Shown here in pieces: positions 2,423 through 44,243 of a stretch of 64,000 bases of DNA. A program made the position numbers and the translations under genes. The notes beneath the pieces were generated by a model, which worked only from the letters and a program-made list of their open reading frames with translations, was not told the origin of the DNA and searched no databases. Each line of letters starts with the position of its first letter. Position 1 is the first letter of the stretch. Source of the DNA: Stellaceae bacterium (GTDB lineage: Bacteria; Pseudomonadota; Alphaproteobacteria; ATCC43930; CGMCC-115725); assembly GCA_036510675.1 (NCBI GenBank), contig DATCDN010000138.1:109199-173198 (forward strand), in the 5' to 3' direction.

Positions 2423-3415
2423 TTAGCCGCCCGTCACACTCATATGACGCGACACCGCCGGCCGGTCATGGCGGCGGTCGATGATGAAATCATGGCCCTT
2501 GGGCTTGCGGTCGATGGCGGCACGGATCGCGGCCTCGACCGGGGCGTCGCTTTCGGCGGCGCGCAGCGGCGCTCGCAGGTCGGCGGCATCCTCCTGCCCC
2601 AGGCACATGAACAGCGTGCCGGTGCAGGTCAGCCGCACGCGATTGCAGCTTTCGCAGAAATTATGGGTCATCGGCGTAATCAGGCCGAGTCGCTGGCCGG
2701 TCTCGCGGACGGTGTAATAGCGCGCCGGACCGCCGGTGCGATAATCGCTCTCATCGAGCGTCCAGCGCTTGCGCAGATCGGCGCGCACCACCGACAGCGG
2801 CAGATATTGATCGACGCGGGTGCCGGAGCCAACCTCGCCCAGCGGCATGACCTCGATCAGCGTCAGATCGAATCCCTGCTCGCCGCACCAGCCGAGCAGC
2901 CGGTCGAATTCGTCATCGTTGACGCCCTTCAGCGCCACCGCGTTCAGCTTGACCTGGAGGCCGGCGGCCTTGGCGGCGGCGATGCCGTCCATCACCTGCT
3001 CGAAGCGGCCCCAGCGGGTGATCGCCTTGAACTTGGCGGCATCGAGCGTGTCGAGCGAGACGTTGATGCGCTTGACGCCGGCGGCCTTCAAATCCTGGGC
3101 ATATTTGGCGAGCTGGCTGCCGTTGGTGGTCAGCGTCAGCTCGTCGAGGGCGCCCGTCTCCAGGTGCCGGCCCAACGCCTTGAACAGCCACATGATATTG
3201 CGCCGCACCAGCGGCTCGCCGCCAGTCAGGCGCAGCTTCTTGACGCCGAGCCGGATGAAGGCGGTCGATAGCCGGTCGAGTTCTTCCAGCGTCAGGATTT
3301 CCGCCTTGGGCAGAAACGCCATGTCCTCCGACATGCAATAGACGCAGCGGAAATCGCAACGGTCGGTCACCGACACGCGCAGATAGGAGATGGTTCGGCC
3401 GAAGGGATCGATCAT
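2423..3415 (-). CDS. moaA: GTP 3',8-cyclase MoaA (radical SAM, molybdenum cofactor biosynthesis)
   Basis: It has CDFRCVYCM (CxxxCxxC) and a C-terminal CxxC cluster ([14 protein letters not shown]). The ATG at 3415 gives the canonical [18 protein letters not shown]-terminus. The ORF is open up to 3460. Confidence 0.85.
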
Positions 3416-3497
3416 GATGGCTATATGGGTGCGAAGACCTGTGATTTCGAGCGACCCCATACCATAGTGACGCCATGCTGGGGATCAACCGAAATAA

Positions 3498-4127
3498 ATG
3501 GCCGAAACCAGCGCCCCTTCCAGCCCGATCGCCGGCCTGATCCTAGCCGGCGGCCAGGGGCGGCGCATGGGCGGCGACAAGGCGCTGCGCCTCCTCGGCG
3601 GCACGCCCCTCGTGGGCCATGCGATTGCCCGCGCGACACCGCAGGTCGGCCCGCTGGCGATCAGCGCCAATGGGTCGGCGCCATTTGCCGATTTCGGCCT
3701 GCCGATCCTCGCCGACAGCGTGCCGGGCTTCGTCGGACCGCTGGCCGGCATTCTAGCCGGCATGGACTGGGCGGCGGAACAGGGCCTGACGTCGATCGCC
3801 AGCTTCCCCTGCGATGCGCCGCTGTTCCCGCGCGACCTGGTGGCGCGGCTGGCCGAGGCGCGGCGGCGCGAGGGCGCGGTGCTGGCCTGCGCCCGGTCGG
3901 GGGGCCGGCGCCATCCGGTATTCGCGCTATGGCCGACCGAAATGCGGGCGGCGCTACGCGTCGCGCTGACGGATGACGGAATCCGCCGGGTCGCGGATTG
4001 GTGCGCGCGCTATCCGGTCGCCATGGTAGATTTTCCGACGGCGCCGTTCGATCCGTTTTTCAATGTCAACACCCCGAGCGACCTCGCCGAAGCGGAAACA
4101 TTGCTCGCGGCGCACCGATCGGCCTAA
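3498..4127 (+). CDS. mobA: molybdenum cofactor guanylyltransferase MobA
   Basis: 209 aa with the N-terminal LILAGGQGRRMGG-DKAL motif. It is divergent from moaA. Confidence 0.8.
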   Translation: MAETSAPSSPIAGLILAGGQGRRMGGDKALRLLGGTPLVGHAIARATPQVGPLAISANGSAPFADFGLPILADSVPGFVGPLAGILAGMDWAAEQGLTSIASFPCDAPLFPRDLVARLAEARRREGAVLACARSGGRRHPVFALWPTEMRAALRVALTDDGIRRVADWCARYPVAMVDFPTAPFDPFFNVNTPSDLAEAETLLAAHRSA

Positions 4128-9256: not shown

Positions 9257-9260
9257 GGAT

Positions 9261-9462
9261 CAGTCGTCAGTTATCAGTCTTCAGTTATCAGTCTTCAGTT
9301 ATCAGTTATCAGTCTTCAGTTATCAGTCCTGATCGCTATCGACCAACCGCCCAAAAACTGACGACTGATAACTGACGACTGATAACTGATAACTGACGAC
9401 TGACTGATAACTGACGACTGACAACTGACAACTGATAACTGTCAACTGACAACTGACAACTC
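9261..9462. repeat. inverted heptamer-array hairpin (10 x CAGTNNT, 23-nt spacer, 15 x ANNACTG plus one 4-nt partial)
   Basis: Units were read directly. The left arm is 9261-9330 and the right arm 9354-9462. When left unit n pairs with right unit n+1, the order of unit types is mirrored and 64 of 70 positions are complementary, with one 4-nt bulge (9403-9406). Confidence 0.95.
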
Positions 9463-27616: not shown

Positions 27617-27749
27617 CAGTTATCAGTTATCAGTTATCAGTTATCAGTTGTCAGTCTGATAACTGACGACTGACGACTGACGACTGACGACTGACGACTG
27701 ACGACTGATAACTGACGACTGACGACTGATAACTGACGACTGACGACTA
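27617..27749. repeat. inverted heptamer-array hairpin (6 x CAGTNNT directly abutting 13 x ANNACTG)
   Basis: The left arm is 27617-27658 (CAGTTAT x4, CAGTTGT, CAGTCTG). The right arm is 27659-27749 (ATAACTG x3, ACGACTG x9, ACGACTA). It fills almost the whole 143-bp gap between the two convergent stop codons. Confidence 0.95.
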
Positions 27750-40119: not shown

Positions 40120-41196
40120 ATGCTCGCCTACGCCATTCGCCGCATCCTGCTGATGATCCCGACCCTGTTCGCGATCATCGTCGTCAATTTCTTCATCATT
40201 CAAGCGGCACCGGGCGGGCCGGTCGATCAGATGATCGCGCAGCTCAAAGGGCGCGGCAACGTCACCGGGCGCGTCACCAGCGCCGGCGGCGAGCTCGCGC
40301 CCAATGCCTCGGCGCAAAGCCGCGCGTCGCGCGGCATCGACCCGGCACTGCTGGCGCGGCTCAACAAGCTCTATGGCTTCGACAAGCCGCCGCTCGAACG
40401 CTTCTGGATCATGATCAGGCACTATGTGACGTTCGATTTCGGCACCAGCTTCTACAGCGACCGGCGCGTGATCACCCTGCTCGTCGATAAATTGCCGGTG
40501 TCGCTGTCGCTGGGCCTGTGGACGACGCTGCTGGTCTATCTCATCTCGATCCCGCTCGGCATCGCCAAGGCGGTGCGCGATGGCTCGGCGTTCGATGTCT
40601 GGACCAGCGCCGTGGTCATCGTCGGCTATGCGATTCCGGGCTTCCTGTTCGCGATCCTGCTGGTGGTGCTGTTCGCCGGCGGCAGCTATTTCCAATGGTT
40701 CCCACTGCGCGGCCTCGTCTCCGACGATTGGTCGGAGCTCGATCTGTTTCATCAGATACTCGATTATTTCTGGCACATCGCCTTGCCGGTCACGGCGCTG
40801 GTGATCGGCGGCTTCGCCAGCCTGACCATGCTGACCAAGAATTCCTTCCTCGAGGAAATCAACAAGCAATATGTCGTGACCGCGCGCGCCAAGGGGTTGA
40901 GCGAGCGGCGCGTGCTCTATGGCCATGTCTTCCGCAATGCGATGCTGCTGGTGATCGCGGGCTTTCCCGCCGCGTTCGTCGGCATCCTCTTTACCGGCGC
41001 CCTGCTGGTCGAGGTGATCTTCTCGCTCGACGGGCTGGGCCTGCTGGGCTTTCAGGCCGCGCTGGGCCGCGACTACCCGGTCATGTTCGGCACGCTCTAC
41101 ATCTATACGCTGGTCGGGCTGGTGATGAAGCTGATCAGCGATCTGACCTACATGCTGGTCGATCCGCGCATCGATTTCGCGACCCGCAACACATGA
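40120..41196 (+). CDS. yejB: ABC transporter permease YejB
   Basis: 358 aa. [27 protein letters not shown] is the DppB/OppB-type N-terminus. Confidence 0.85.
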
Positions 41197-42224
41197 TGGG
41201 GCGGCCGCTTACGCCGCTGATGCGGCGGCGCCTCGCCAATTTCCGCGCCAACAGCCGCGGCTATTGGTCGATGTGGTTTTTCCTGGTGCTGTTCGTCGCC
41301 AGCCTGTTCGCCGAATTCATCGCCAACGACCGGCCGCTGATCGTGTCCTATGACGGGCATTTCATGTTCCCGATCATTCGCGATTACACCGAGACCGAGC
41401 TGGGCGGCGACCTGCCGATCGACGCCGATTTTCGCGATCCCGAAGTGGCGGCGCGCATCGAGGCGAAGGGCTGGATGCTGTGGCCGCTGATCCCGTTCGA
41501 TTATCGCGCCATCAATTTCCACCTGCCTTCGCCCGCGCCGTCGCCGCCCAGCGCCGTCAACTGGCTGGGGACCGACGATCAGGGCCGCGATGTGTTCGCG
41601 CGCCTCATCTATGGCTTCCGCATTTCGGTGCTGTTCGGCCTGGTGCTGACGGTGCTGAGCTCGATCATCGGAGTCGCGGCCGGCGCAATCCAGGGCTATT
41701 ACGGCGGCCTGACCGACCTCGCGGCACAGCGGTTCCTCGAAATCTGGTCGGGCCTGCCGGTGCTCTATCTGCTGATCATCCTCTCCAGCATCATCCAGCC
41801 AAATTTCTGGTGGCTCCTGGGCATTATGCTGCTGTTCTCGTGGATGTCGCTGGTCGATCTGGTGCGCGCCGAATTTCTGCGCGCGCGCAATTTCGACTAT
41901 GTCCGCGCCGCCAAGGCGCTCGGCGTGTCGAACCCGGTGATCATCTGGCGCCATGTTTTGCCCAACGCGATGGTGGCGACGCTGACCTTCCTGCCGTTCA
42001 TCCTCAATGGCTCGATCACGACGCTGACCTCGCTCGATTTCCTTGGCTTCGGCTTGCCGCCCGGCTCGCCGTCGCTGGGCGAATTGCTGTCCGAGGGCAA
42101 GAGCAACCTGCAAGCGCCATGGCTGGGCCTGACCGCGTTCTTCACGCTCGGCCTGATGCTGAGCCTCTTGATCTTCATCGGCGAAGCGGTGCGCGACGCC
42201 TTCGATCCGCGGAAGATGGGATAG
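41193..42224 (+). CDS. yejE: ABC transporter permease YejE
   Basis: 343 aa. The start overlaps the yejB stop (ATGA). It is a DppC/OppC-type permease with [17 protein letters not shown]. Confidence 0.85.
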
Positions 42225-42233
42225 GGTAATTGT

Positions 42234-42261
42234 CAGTCTTCAGTTGTCAGTTTTCAGTCAG
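42234..42261. repeat. left heptamer arm of the four-helix-bundle cassette (CAGTCTT CAGTTGT CAGTTTT CAGTCAG)
   Basis: Read directly. The last unit overlaps the AGGAG SD (42260-42264) of the downstream ORF. Confidence 0.9.
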
Positions 42262-42266
42262 GAGAA

Positions 42267-42626
42267 ATGCAGAATTTCCGCGACCTCAAGGTTTGGAGCA
42301 AGGCTCATGCGGTTGTGATTGCCGTGTACGCCGCGACCGAGCCGTTTCCAGCGGCGGAGCGTTTTGGCCTCACAAGCCAGATGCGTCGGGCCGCTTCCTC
42401 GATTCCGGCGAATATCGCCGAGGGATGCGGCCGTTCGAGCAATGCCGATTTGGCGCGCTTTCTCCATATCGCATTGGGATCGGCAAGCGAGCTCGACTAC
42501 TTTTTACTGCTCGCCCGCGATCTGAAATTCTTAAAGCCTCCAATTCACGACGATCTCCGCGCCAATGTTCAAGAGGTCAAACGAATGCTCGGCGGCCTGA
42601 TCGGTCGCGTCAGAACTGATGACTGA
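42267..42626 (+). CDS. four-helix-bundle protein (23S rRNA intervening-sequence protein / DGR Avd fold family)
   Basis: 119 aa. FRDLKVWSKAH, ERFGLTSQMRRAASSIPANIAEGCGR and FLHIALGSASELDYFLLLA match the TIGR02436/PF05635 pattern as I remember it. Confidence 0.85.
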   Translation: MQNFRDLKVWSKAHAVVIAVYAATEPFPAAERFGLTSQMRRAASSIPANIAEGCGRSSNADLARFLHIALGSASELDYFLLLARDLKFLKPPIHDDLRANVQEVKRMLGGLIGRVRTDD

Positions 42627-42646
42627 AAACTGATGACTGAAAACTT
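42612..42646. repeat. right heptamer arm of the cassette (AGAACTG ATGACTG AAAACTG ATGACTG AAAACTT)
   Basis: Read directly. It contains the ORF stop (42624-42626) and the yejF ATG (42633-42635). It includes a perfect 14-nt tandem duplication (42618-42631 = 42632-42645). Confidence 0.9.
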
Positions 42647-44243
42647 ATTGTCCGTCTCCCACCTCTCGGTCGCGTTCCGATCCGGTGACTCGATTGTCGC
42701 CGCCGTAAAGGACGTCTCGTTCGACATCGCCAAGGGCGAGACGGTCGCGCTGGTCGGCGAATCCGGGTCGGGGAAATCCGTGACGGCGCTATCGATTCTG
42801 CAACTCCTGCCCTATCCCGCCGCCAGCCACGGGCCGGGCAGCAGCATCAAGTTCGAGGGGCGCGAGCTGGTCGGCGCGCCCGCCAAGACACTGCGCGCGG
42901 TGCGCGGCAACCGCGTCGCGATGGTGTTTCAGGAGCCGATGACCTCGCTGAACCCACTGCACACCATCCGCAAGCAGATCACCGAGACCCTGTTCCTGCA
43001 CAAGCATCTGGGCCGCGCCGCGGCGACGGCGCGCGCCATCGAATTGCTGAAGCTGGTCGGGTTGAGCGAGGCGGAAAAGCGGCTCGACGCCTATCCCCAT
43101 CAATTGTCGGGCGGGCAGCGCCAGCGCGTGATGATCGCGATGGCGCTCGCCAACGAGCCGGCTCTGTTCATCGCCGACGAGCCGACCACCGCGCTCGACG
43201 TCACCATCCAGGCGCAACTCCTGAAATTGCTCAAGGAATTGCAGGCGCGCTTCGGCATGGCGATGCTGATGATCACCCACGATCTGACCATCGTGCGCAA
43301 GGTGGCGGACCGGGTGATGGTGATGACGCAAGGCGAGATCGTCGAGCGCGGCACCGTCGCCGAGATCTTCGCCCGGCCCCAGCATCCCTATACCAAGCGG
43401 CTGCTCGCCGCCGAGCCCAAGGGCGAGCCGGTGTCGATCGAACCGCCGCCGCCGGTGGTGCTGGAGACCAAGAATCTGCGGGTGTGGTTCCCGATCCGCG
43501 CCGGCCTGTTCCGCCGTACCGTCGGCTACATCAAGGCGGTGGACGGCGTCGATGCGGTGGTGCGGCAGGGCGAGACGCTGGGCATTGTCGGCGAGTCCGG
43601 GTCCGGCAAGACGACGCTGGCGCTGGCGCTGTTGCGGCTCACCCGGAGCGAGGGCGATATCATCTATGCCGGCCGGCCGATCGATGGCATTTCGGAGCGC
43701 GCGATGCGCCCCTTACGCCGCGAATTGCAGATTGTGTTCCAGGACCCGTTCGCCAGCCTGTCGCCGCGCCTCTCGATCGCGCAGATCGTCGAGGAAGGGC
43801 TGACGGTGCATCGCATCGGCGCCAATCGCGACGAACGCCGCGTGCTGATTCGCGACGTGCTGCAAGAGGTCGGGCTCGATCCCGCGGCCGCCGACCGCTA
43901 TCCGCATGAATTTTCCGGCGGCCAGCGCCAGCGCGTCGCCATCGCCCGCGCCCTGGTGCTGAAGCCGCGCCTCGTCATGCTGGACGAGCCGACCTCGGCG
44001 CTCGATGTCTCGATCCAGGCGCAGATCGTCGATCTGTTGCGCGATCTTCAGCGGCGGCATGGCCTCGCCTATCTCTTCATCAGCCACGATCTGCGCGTGG
44101 TGCGCGCGCTGGCGCACGATCTGATCGTGATGAAGGACGGCAAGGTGGTCGAGGCCGGGCCGGCGAAGGAGATTTTCGCGGCGCCGAAAGAACCTTACAC
44201 CCGCGCGCTCATGGCCGCCGCTTTCGACCTTGCCGTGGCTTAG
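42633..44243 (+). CDS. yejF: ABC transporter ATP-binding protein YejF (fused double ATPase)
   Basis: 536 aa. There are two Walker A motifs ([18 protein letters not shown]), two signatures ([16 protein letters not shown]) and two Walker B motifs. The N-terminus [15 protein letters not shown] parallels E. coli YejF MTQTLLAIENLSVGF. Confidence 0.9.

Follow-up and report, generated by a model that had tools for sequence, protein, structure and literature searches.

The window analysed here, a stretch of 64,000 nucleotides from the genome assembly of a Stellaceae bacterium (contig DATCDN010000138.1), carries a small cassette lodged between yejE and yejF, the permease and ATPase genes of a Yej-type transporter operon. 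The cassette consists of an open reading frame (ORF) for a four-helix-bundle (4HB) protein, flanked on each side by some four tandem heptamers with a T-Y-A-G-Y core, the two arrays being complementary to each other, an organization that recalls the intervening sequences (IVSs) found within 23S rRNA genes. On balance, we regard it as probable that this is an IVS-type cassette living in mRNA instead of rRNA. This reading draws on the arrays themselves and the stem that they are predicted to form, on the conservation of the gene and its arms among Stellaceae, on the replacement of arms and ORF as a block between related species, and on the recurrence of the same association in more than ten phyla.

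The boundaries of the locus given in a preliminary description hold on the sequence: the TAG stop codon of yejE lies at 42222-42224, the ATG of yejF at 42633, and the gap between both genes measures 408 bp. That description had reported four CAGTNNT heptamers upstream and five ANNACTG heptamers downstream of the ORF, whose positions were confirmed (Table 1), the fifth downstream unit being imperfect, and a perfect 13-bp complement, which is indeed exact (42248-42260 with 42620-42632). A repeat finder delimited two arms of 26 nt (42235-42260 and 42620-42645) with 88% complementarity, and the best ungapped register over 28 nt contains 24 Watson-Crick pairs plus two G-U pairs, compared with 14.9 +/- 1.1 pairs, and a maximum of 19, for shuffled arms. 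Allowing at most one mismatch, CAGTNNTCAGTNNTCAGT yielded 41 matches in the window and none in 100 shuffles; the presence of heptamers at these coordinates far exceeds chance.

A long-range stem with the ORF as its loop, also proposed earlier, was recovered by folding of region 42222-42655: the predicted pairing closes the whole ORF (z = -4.9). The main helix, of 22 bp, would join 42239-42260 to 42620-42641, thus enclosing both the 4HB stop codon (42624-42626) and the yejF AUG (42633-42635). At its inner end the predicted stem has an internal loop of 3 nt, where the Shine-Dalgarno sequence of the 4HB gene would sit, and its foot adjoins the yejE stop codon. The 3' arm is at the same time coding sequence, as it encodes the last five codons and the TGA stop of the 4HB gene and also holds the start codon of yejF, which lies 7 nt past that stop and lacks a Shine-Dalgarno sequence of its own. 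No promoter-like or terminator-like site was found within the cassette, which would therefore be transcribed together with yejABEF.

The 119-aa product belongs, as had been suggested, to the four-helix-bundle family: PF05635 matched residues 5-109 of 119 with 129.8 bits (cut-off 33.8) and TIGR02436 scored 124.4 bits (cut-off 24). A database record of an identical protein is titled 'four helix bundle protein', and a hidden Markov model of the family finds no other member in the window. Among solved structures, the nearest is that of XCC0516, a pentamer (PDB 2GSC_A, E = 2.8e-20, residues 7-115), and the isoelectric point of the window protein is 9.35. The PF05635/TIGR02436 family, with thousands of members, is homologous to Avd of diversity-generating retroelements (DGRs); Avd and IVS proteins have a common fold (PMC10053308), and as late as 2024 a preprint (10.1101/2024.02.27.582315) listed the domain as functionally uncharacterised. 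Among the PADLOC defence models, none matched the protein at E <= 0.01.

The Avd-type assignment that had been offered alongside the IVS one did not survive, as the Avd models NF033474 and PF22296 gave 29.9 and 20.4 bits, far under their cut-offs of 80 and 40. These weak matches, together with the common fold (PMC10053308), are what would speak for an orphan Avd whose retroelement keeps its reverse transcriptase (RT) and its template and variable repeats (TR and VR) elsewhere. Such an origin is effectively refuted here, not only by the scores, but also by the lack of an RT in the large ORFs within ~10 kb or among the called genes of the 10 orthologous loci described below, by the conserved position in the operon, and by the nature of the heptamer arms, which are not a TR/VR pair. 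In agreement with the preliminary description, the large ORFs within ~10 kb on each side encode no RT, transposase or integrase domain, TR/VR pairs not having been explicitly searched for, and the called genes of the orthologous Stellaceae loci include no RT, transposase or integrase either.

Look-ups of the closest homologues, plus one locus from a genome scan, provided ten distinct Stellaceae sequences (the window and loci L170, L175, L172, L174, L161, L167, L164, L168, and L001). In all ten species the 4HB gene stands at the same yejE|yejF junction and its protein is intact, each arm contains four heptamers, rarely five, and the arms pair at 23-26 of 28 positions; two sister species show a 1-nt overlap (TGATG) of the 4HB stop with the yejF start. 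Measured against the window copy, the dN/dS of the 4HB gene was 0.05 in the closest relatives (dS ~1) and 0.13-0.2 in the others, and the pairwise identity of the 4HB protein follows that of YejF next to it (r = 0.66, p = 1e-6). The 4HB protein is under strong purifying selection and the cassette is fixed at this junction across Stellaceae, so that any notion of a recent or sporadic insertion has to be dropped.

The state of the junction before the cassette can be approached through more distant relatives. Among 80 metagenome loci with YejF relatives (53-75% identity), the yejE-yejF junction was scorable in 56, and in 35 of these it did not exceed 30 nt (-13 to +29), with GTGA or ATGA stop/start overlaps in several. 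Neither a 4HB gene nor heptamer arrays were found at the yejE|yejF junction outside Stellaceae in any of the 80 loci, most of which were empty there. From these short and in part overlapping junctions we conclude that the ancestral state was a translationally coupled junction, into which the cassette was inserted. The suggestion that it forms a self-contained unit is upheld both by these empty, overlapping junctions and by the comparison of L167 with L001, where only the arms and the ORF are replaced.

In this pair of loci, YejE is 93% and YejF 90% identical, in contrast to 66% for the 4HB protein, and the arm types differ. Nucleotide identity runs at 90-97% through yejE to its stop codon, falls to 55-70% across arms and ORF, and returns to ~90% from the yejF start, with a similar discordance in the pairs L161-L001 and L161-L164. 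Because a drop confined to the arms and the ORF is impossible by in-place divergence under purifying selection, a different allele must have replaced the resident one; arms and ORF act as a single exchangeable unit, with break points at the outer arm ends. The arms are of the CAGT/ACTG type in seven species, of the AAGC/GCTT type in two (L164, L168), and of the CAGC/GCTG type in one (L001), and both arms switch type together between species. Cognate and same-type arms form 20-25 Watson-Crick pairs over 28 positions, whereas combinations of CAGT with AAGC arms form 15-20, near the shuffled values, and those with CAGC arms 18-22; duplex energies agree with these counts. Same-type non-cognate arms thus pair as well as cognate ones, so co-variation holds at the level of heptamer type only, and a fine compensatory covariation of the arms was ruled out as a claim for this same reason.

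Replacement edges at the outer arm ends are also what a mobile element acting at the DNA level would leave. In this alternative, the arms would be terminal inverted repeats or recombination substrates (for instance as hairpin or cruciform DNA), and the 4HB protein a mobility or maintenance factor. The ORF-less hairpins described below would be landing pads or else non-autonomous derivatives, and the stem in RNA would arise as a by-product. It is the main rival, although compatible with the RNA-level reading, and it would explain the sharp-edged swap; the complementarity of the arms at type level only is equally in its favour. Nevertheless, we judge it rather unlikely, given the stable position of the cassette across a bacterial family, with flanks that broadly co-diverge (r = 0.66), the lack of a consistent target-site duplication, and the absence of transposases, integrases or RTs in the large ORFs within ~10 kb or in orthologous loci. 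In addition, no nuclease or recombinase chemistry is known for the four-helix-bundle fold.

Independently of the Stellaceae, a counterpart of the cassette within rRNA was found by tblastn of plasmid records: replicon AZO_p2 of Azospirillum lipoferum 4B carries a 4HB homologue inside a 23S rRNA gene (2529 bits with the large-subunit model of Rfam, LSU), to which the window protein is 41% identical. This IVS ORF is flanked by inverted heptamer arrays, of CAGAGGA type on one side and of TCCTCTG type on the other, and the earlier claim that the cassette has the build of an rRNA IVS is supported by it, as a PF05635-type ORF stands between inverted heptamer arrays in both. In Coxiella, three to four GACAGAT heptamers precede the IVS ORF, and the 5' cut by RNase III falls at the first repeat (PMC4990558).

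The genome scan identified 80 loci with 4HB homologues (52-67% identity) hosted by Acidobacteriota, Chloroflexota, Planctomycetota, Nitrospirota, Cyanobacteriota, Gemmatimonadota, Proteobacteria, a bacterium of the candidate phyla radiation (CPR), and a Bathyarchaeia bin, more than 10 phyla in total; the counts that follow use the 78 full-length genes with enough flank. To be scored as an array, an exact 4-mer core had to recur with period 7 in at least three units, either within 100 nt upstream or at or after the stop codon. By this definition arrays were present upstream in 63/78, downstream in 65/78, on both sides in 54/78, and on either side in 74/78, compared with 3 of 307 control segments of the same loci (1%). 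Where both arrays were present they were reverse complements in 49/54, with a modal length of four units, and the 4HB stop codon lay in or abutting the array in 41/65. The consensus of the 5' arm on the coding strand is T-Y-A-G-Y-N-N (AG in 60/63, AGC in 48/63). Tandem Repeats Finder reported 207 period-7 arrays in 439 kb of 4HB loci, and ~5 true arrays, all in one locus, in 342 kb of yejF controls. Among isolate plasmids, flanking arrays were present in all 10 examples inspected, and inverted in 8 of them.

These figures bear directly on a further explanation, in which slippage would have produced the arrays as generic hairpins between genes, similar to REP elements or terminators. They would then be functionally unconnected with the ORF, and the 4HB gene would tend to be tolerated in such spacers or to land there. 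Tandem heptamers are reported as the most abundant intergenic tandem repeats of prokaryotes (10.1101/309039; PMC4692102; PMC4679880), and ORF-less arrays do exist, both in the window and, with unrelated heptamers, in 4HB-bearing loci. However, generic hairpins would hardly be ~60-fold enriched at the ends of the gene relative to control segments of the same loci, nor reach in 4HB loci ~40 times the density of the yejF controls; neither would they be expected to be replaced together with the ORF, to contain its end so frequently (41/65), to keep the T-Y-A-G-Y core across phyla, or to hold an arm length of 4(-5) units in ten species despite dS of at least 1. We consequently hold this explanation to be very improbable.

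The breadth of the distribution is, on the other hand, favourable to the DNA-level element: close homologues (52-67% identity) spread over more than 10 phyla, including the CPR bacterium and the archaeal bin, and the contexts vary from rRNA and cas operons to the dprA|topA and yejE|yejF junctions. To this can be added a 411-bp unit found 99% identical at two loci of one metagenome-assembled genome (MAG), and the partial duplication of arm, ribosome-binding site (RBS) and first eight codons in L001. As for dprA|topA, seven Acidobacteriaceae MAGs (L034, L056, L059, L062, L069, L078, L079; at ~2900-3500) carry the cassette there with AGCTNCT-type arms; the domain check covered L062 alone, and the other six loci were placed by their common flanking sequence, on which basis this is, to all appearance, a second family-wide fixed junction.

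To the preliminary description one correction has to be made, in that the arrays are not unique to the yej site: two further hairpins of the same heptamers, both ORF-less, occur in the window (Table 1). The first takes up the whole spacer that separates a gene for a hybrid histidine kinase from a Band_7 gene, and the second the whole spacer of a convergent gene pair with MAPEG and Fer2 domains. The genome has, therefore, a CAGT(T/C)NT 'dialect' of heptamer hairpins, of which in the window one alone carries a 4HB gene. Hairpins of the same dialect without an ORF are in line with the DNA-level element, for which they could be derivatives; the test for an ORF remnant in the loop of hairpin 9259-9461, which would have added to it, was not significant (p ~0.4), as the apparent match to the 3' end of the ORF vanished once the array-encoded part was removed, and the candidate remnant was rejected.

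Returning to the cassette as an IVS carried by mRNA, its arms would pair in the transcript as a stem of ~32 bp enclosing the ORF and burying the 4HB stop codon and the yejF AUG. A ribosome terminating at the yejE stop would open the foot of this stem, after which the 4HB ORF could be translated; the ribosome on the 4HB ORF would in turn melt the 3' arm and stop 7 nt (or -1 nt) from the yejF AUG, where it could re-initiate, and this relay of ribosomes would replace the ancestral direct coupling of yejE with yejF. The predicted stem is long enough for RNase III and, by the precedent of rRNA IVSs, is likely to be cleaved by it. The two effects put forward in the preliminary description, a split of yejABE from yejF by RNase III and a gating of yejF translation, are plausible. 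More speculatively, the basic, probably pentameric 4HB protein may act on heptamer-repeat nucleic acid, that is, on its own arms and on the ORF-less hairpins; the heptamer array, with a core kept across phyla, is the sole systematic companion of the 4HB gene, hence the proposed binding to heptamer RNA or DNA. Extended to the whole family, PF05635/TIGR02436 proteins might be the missing trans-acting partner of tandem heptamers, and IVSs the rRNA-borne minority of phylum-spanning cassettes, with a ring-shaped basic protein recognising T-Y-A-G-Y arrays at approximately one unit per subunit and controlling either the processing or translation of array-bearing transcripts or the maintenance, spread and swapping of arrays and cassettes. 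We advance this last generalisation tentatively, as a possibility on which we would not insist.

Several observations weigh against the interpretation as an mRNA-borne IVS. The ORF of the Coxiella IVS is reported to be probably unexpressed and decaying (PMC4990558), some members of the family have direct rather than inverted arrays (Pseudanabaena, Gemmatirosa), and the arms of L019 (2905-2980 and 3373-3443), with a TCAG/CTGA core, follow a period of 8 (self-identity 0.73, vs 0.21 at 7). The existence of ORF-less hairpins made of the same heptamers implies that arrays do not need a 4HB gene in cis. Moreover, a homogenising process at the DNA level could yield the complementarity of the arms without selection on RNA pairing. 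The relay, in addition, explains an open ORF but not the conservation of its amino acids, so the 4HB protein must have a function of its own; and relay, RNase III cleavage and binding of the protein to repeats have all been inferred from sequence.

Among known systems, the ORF-bearing 23S rRNA IVSs of Coxiella burnetii, Leptospira, and Azospirillum are like the yej cassette in having a PF05635 ORF, complementary tandem-heptamer arms and a predicted enclosing stem. They differ in location, as 23S IVSs occupy helix 25 or 45 whereas the yej cassette occupies an operon junction in mRNA and not 23S helix 45, and, in the case of Coxiella, in the fate of the ORF, reported as unexpressed and decaying there but intact and strongly constrained in ten species here. 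Furthermore, the arms of the yej cassette overlap the stop codon of the cargo and the start of the next gene, so that translation is involved, and cleavage by RNase III would be a property shared with the rRNA elements by analogy.

RNase III-processed intercistronic stem-loops and coupled operon junctions are also familiar, with a long stem between cistrons and with adjacent or overlapping stop and start codons, as in the yej cassette. Compared with these stem-loops, the yej stem is long-range (359 nt between arms), is built of tandem heptamers and has a protein gene in its loop. The cassette likewise recalls palindromes such as repetitive extragenic palindromes (REP), bacterial interspersed mosaic elements (BIME) or miniature inverted-repeat transposable elements (MITE), which are dispersed intergenic hairpins with a genome-specific 'dialect' and with ORF-less copies beside a protein-coding copy; in contrast to them, its arms are tandem 7-mers in variable number and not a fixed palindrome, and its protein is neither a REP-associated tyrosine transposase (RAYT) nor another transposase. 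With the Avd of DGRs, the 4HB protein has in common the four-helix-bundle fold, a small basic nature and a pentameric state in solved relatives (PMC10053308), but it fails the Avd models, has no RT near and lies in a transporter operon.

Heptamer repeats have a literature of their own. The TAACTGA repeats of Beggiatoaceae, Cyanobacteria, and Bacteroidetes were reported with the comment that 'no mechanism is evident' and with no associated gene named (PMC4679880), a survey of 7,006 genomes ranked tandem heptamers first in abundance among intergenic repeats and saw 'no clear clue' to what they do (10.1101/309039), and further intergenic heptamer repeats are those of Xanthomonas and Nostoc (PMC4692102). 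Repeats of the TAACTGA type share their unit with the window arrays, which read ...GATAACTGACGACTGA..., and the likeness extends to an intergenic position, often immediately before start codons, to forward units that stop in all three frames and to a patchy distribution across phyla. The short tandemly repeated repetitive (STRR) sequences of cyanobacteria are intergenic heptamer repeats as well. The known repeats, nevertheless, were described as arrays alone, without mention of four-helix-bundle proteins, whereas here they form inverted arms around one gene family. Apart from the local description in Coxiella, searches of the open-access literature revealed no report of a general association between PF05635 genes and heptamer arrays at their flanks, although the closed literature may hold one.

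The ORF-bearing IVS module is thus not confined to rRNA: it lies mostly between protein genes, is stably inheritable with a constrained protein, and is exchangeable as a unit. Its near-obligatory pairing with heptamer arrays of shared core gives the PF05635/TIGR02436 family a concrete, testable nucleic-acid target and, conversely, the existence of an associated gene family makes the dominance of 7-nt tandem repeats in bacterial intergenic regions directly testable. The yej cassette itself suggests a natural case of a gene inserted in a coupled junction that needs to pass ribosomes to the downstream ATPase gene.

Table 1. Features of the yej cassette, of the adjoining genes and of the two ORF-less hairpins (positions in the window).
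Feature	Positions	Strand	Content or evidence
5' arm	42234..42261	+	CAGTCTT, CAGTTGT, CAGTTTT, CAGTCAG
3' arm	42612..42646	+	AGAACTG, ATGACTG, AAAACTG, ATGACTG, AAAACTT (last imperfect)
Predicted stem, 5' strand	42224..42260	+	Minimum free energy and centroid folds; 7 + 3 + 22 pairs
Predicted stem, 3' strand	42620..42653	+	Minimum free energy and centroid folds
4HB gene, 119 aa	42267..42626	+	PF05635/TIGR02436
Shine-Dalgarno AGGAG of the 4HB ORF	42260..42264	+	Sequence and fold; inner end of stem
yejE permease gene	41193..42224	+	NF011596, 517.8 bits (cut-off 439)
YejF-like double ABC ATPase gene	42633..44243	+	NF011713, 742 bits (equivalog cut-off 834)
ORF-less hairpin 1	9259..9461	.	(CAGTNNT)~10, 28-nt loop, (ANNACTG)~15; fold z = -12.8
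ORF-less hairpin 2	27617..27748	.	(CAGTTAT)~6, (ACTGACG)~13, almost no loop; fold z = -9.9

The order of domains in the host operon, SBP_bac_5, two BPD_transp_1 permeases and a double ATP-binding cassette (ABC) ATPase, is of Yej type, the type of the microcin C-like peptide importers. The start of yejE was placed from a 343-aa alignment with its orthologues, and the ATPase is called YejF-like because YejF is its best match, yet with a score under the equivalog cut-off (742 vs 834). A scan of the whole window with Rfam gave no family match. A 6-bp ATTGTC that flanks the cassette was considered as a target-site duplication and rejected, given that its left copy is part of a heptamer, its right copy corresponds to conserved yejF codons, and it is absent in orthologues.

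Other small inserts were observed at the yejE|yejF junction of the relatives. Four loci (L089, 546-1283; L101, 77-934; L112, 207-966; L133, 1770-2489) contain a two-ORF module, composed of a small MNKIV...DEWD protein and of a second ORF that is PIN/VapC-like by eye only, whereas L113 has a single ORF of 1.1 kb (1147-2259) and L088 a 373-bp non-coding insert (2115-2489). Small cassettes seem to have landed repeatedly at this junction. In addition, among the yejF-type controls true heptamer arrays occur in L155 alone; they are of CAGC/GCTGA type (1-90, 195-230, and 1207-1343) and located at two ABC-transporter operon junctions, one of them directly before a start codon, with no 4HB gene in the 3.3 kb covered.

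In locus L001, a tandem partial duplication upstream of the gene (2880-3000) comprises the 5' arm, the RBS, the ATG and the first eight codons (MQNFRDLE), followed by a second 5' arm with RBS and then by the full ORF. The 411-bp unit mentioned above was found in a Nannocystaceae MAG, at L023 (2999-3409) and L025 (2996-3406), and comprises the ORF without its first codon, the heptamer array on the 3' side and a further ~45 nt. In L025 the copy has a tRNA gene as its neighbour, and direct repeats of ~25 bp (caagcgcgccgcgaagaac) delimit it.

An earlier survey had noted the four-helix-bundle family inside cas loci (PMC3936711), and plasmids of Pseudanabaena (L179), Anabaena sp. 90 (L182), and Picosynechococcus (L181) carry 4HB genes with arrays at cas6|cas4 and at cmr2 (cas10)|cmr3. 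The gene of L179 is preceded by (AAAAGCT)x17 and followed by an array in direct, not inverted, orientation. Finally, the far flanks of L024, L053, L055, and L015 contain arrays or hairpins of unrelated units (AGGCGAN, AATTGAG/CTCAATT, GGATTTN, and CACTTTC), and the presence of such heptamers in 4HB-bearing genomes implies that the 7-nt period is more general than the TYAGY core.

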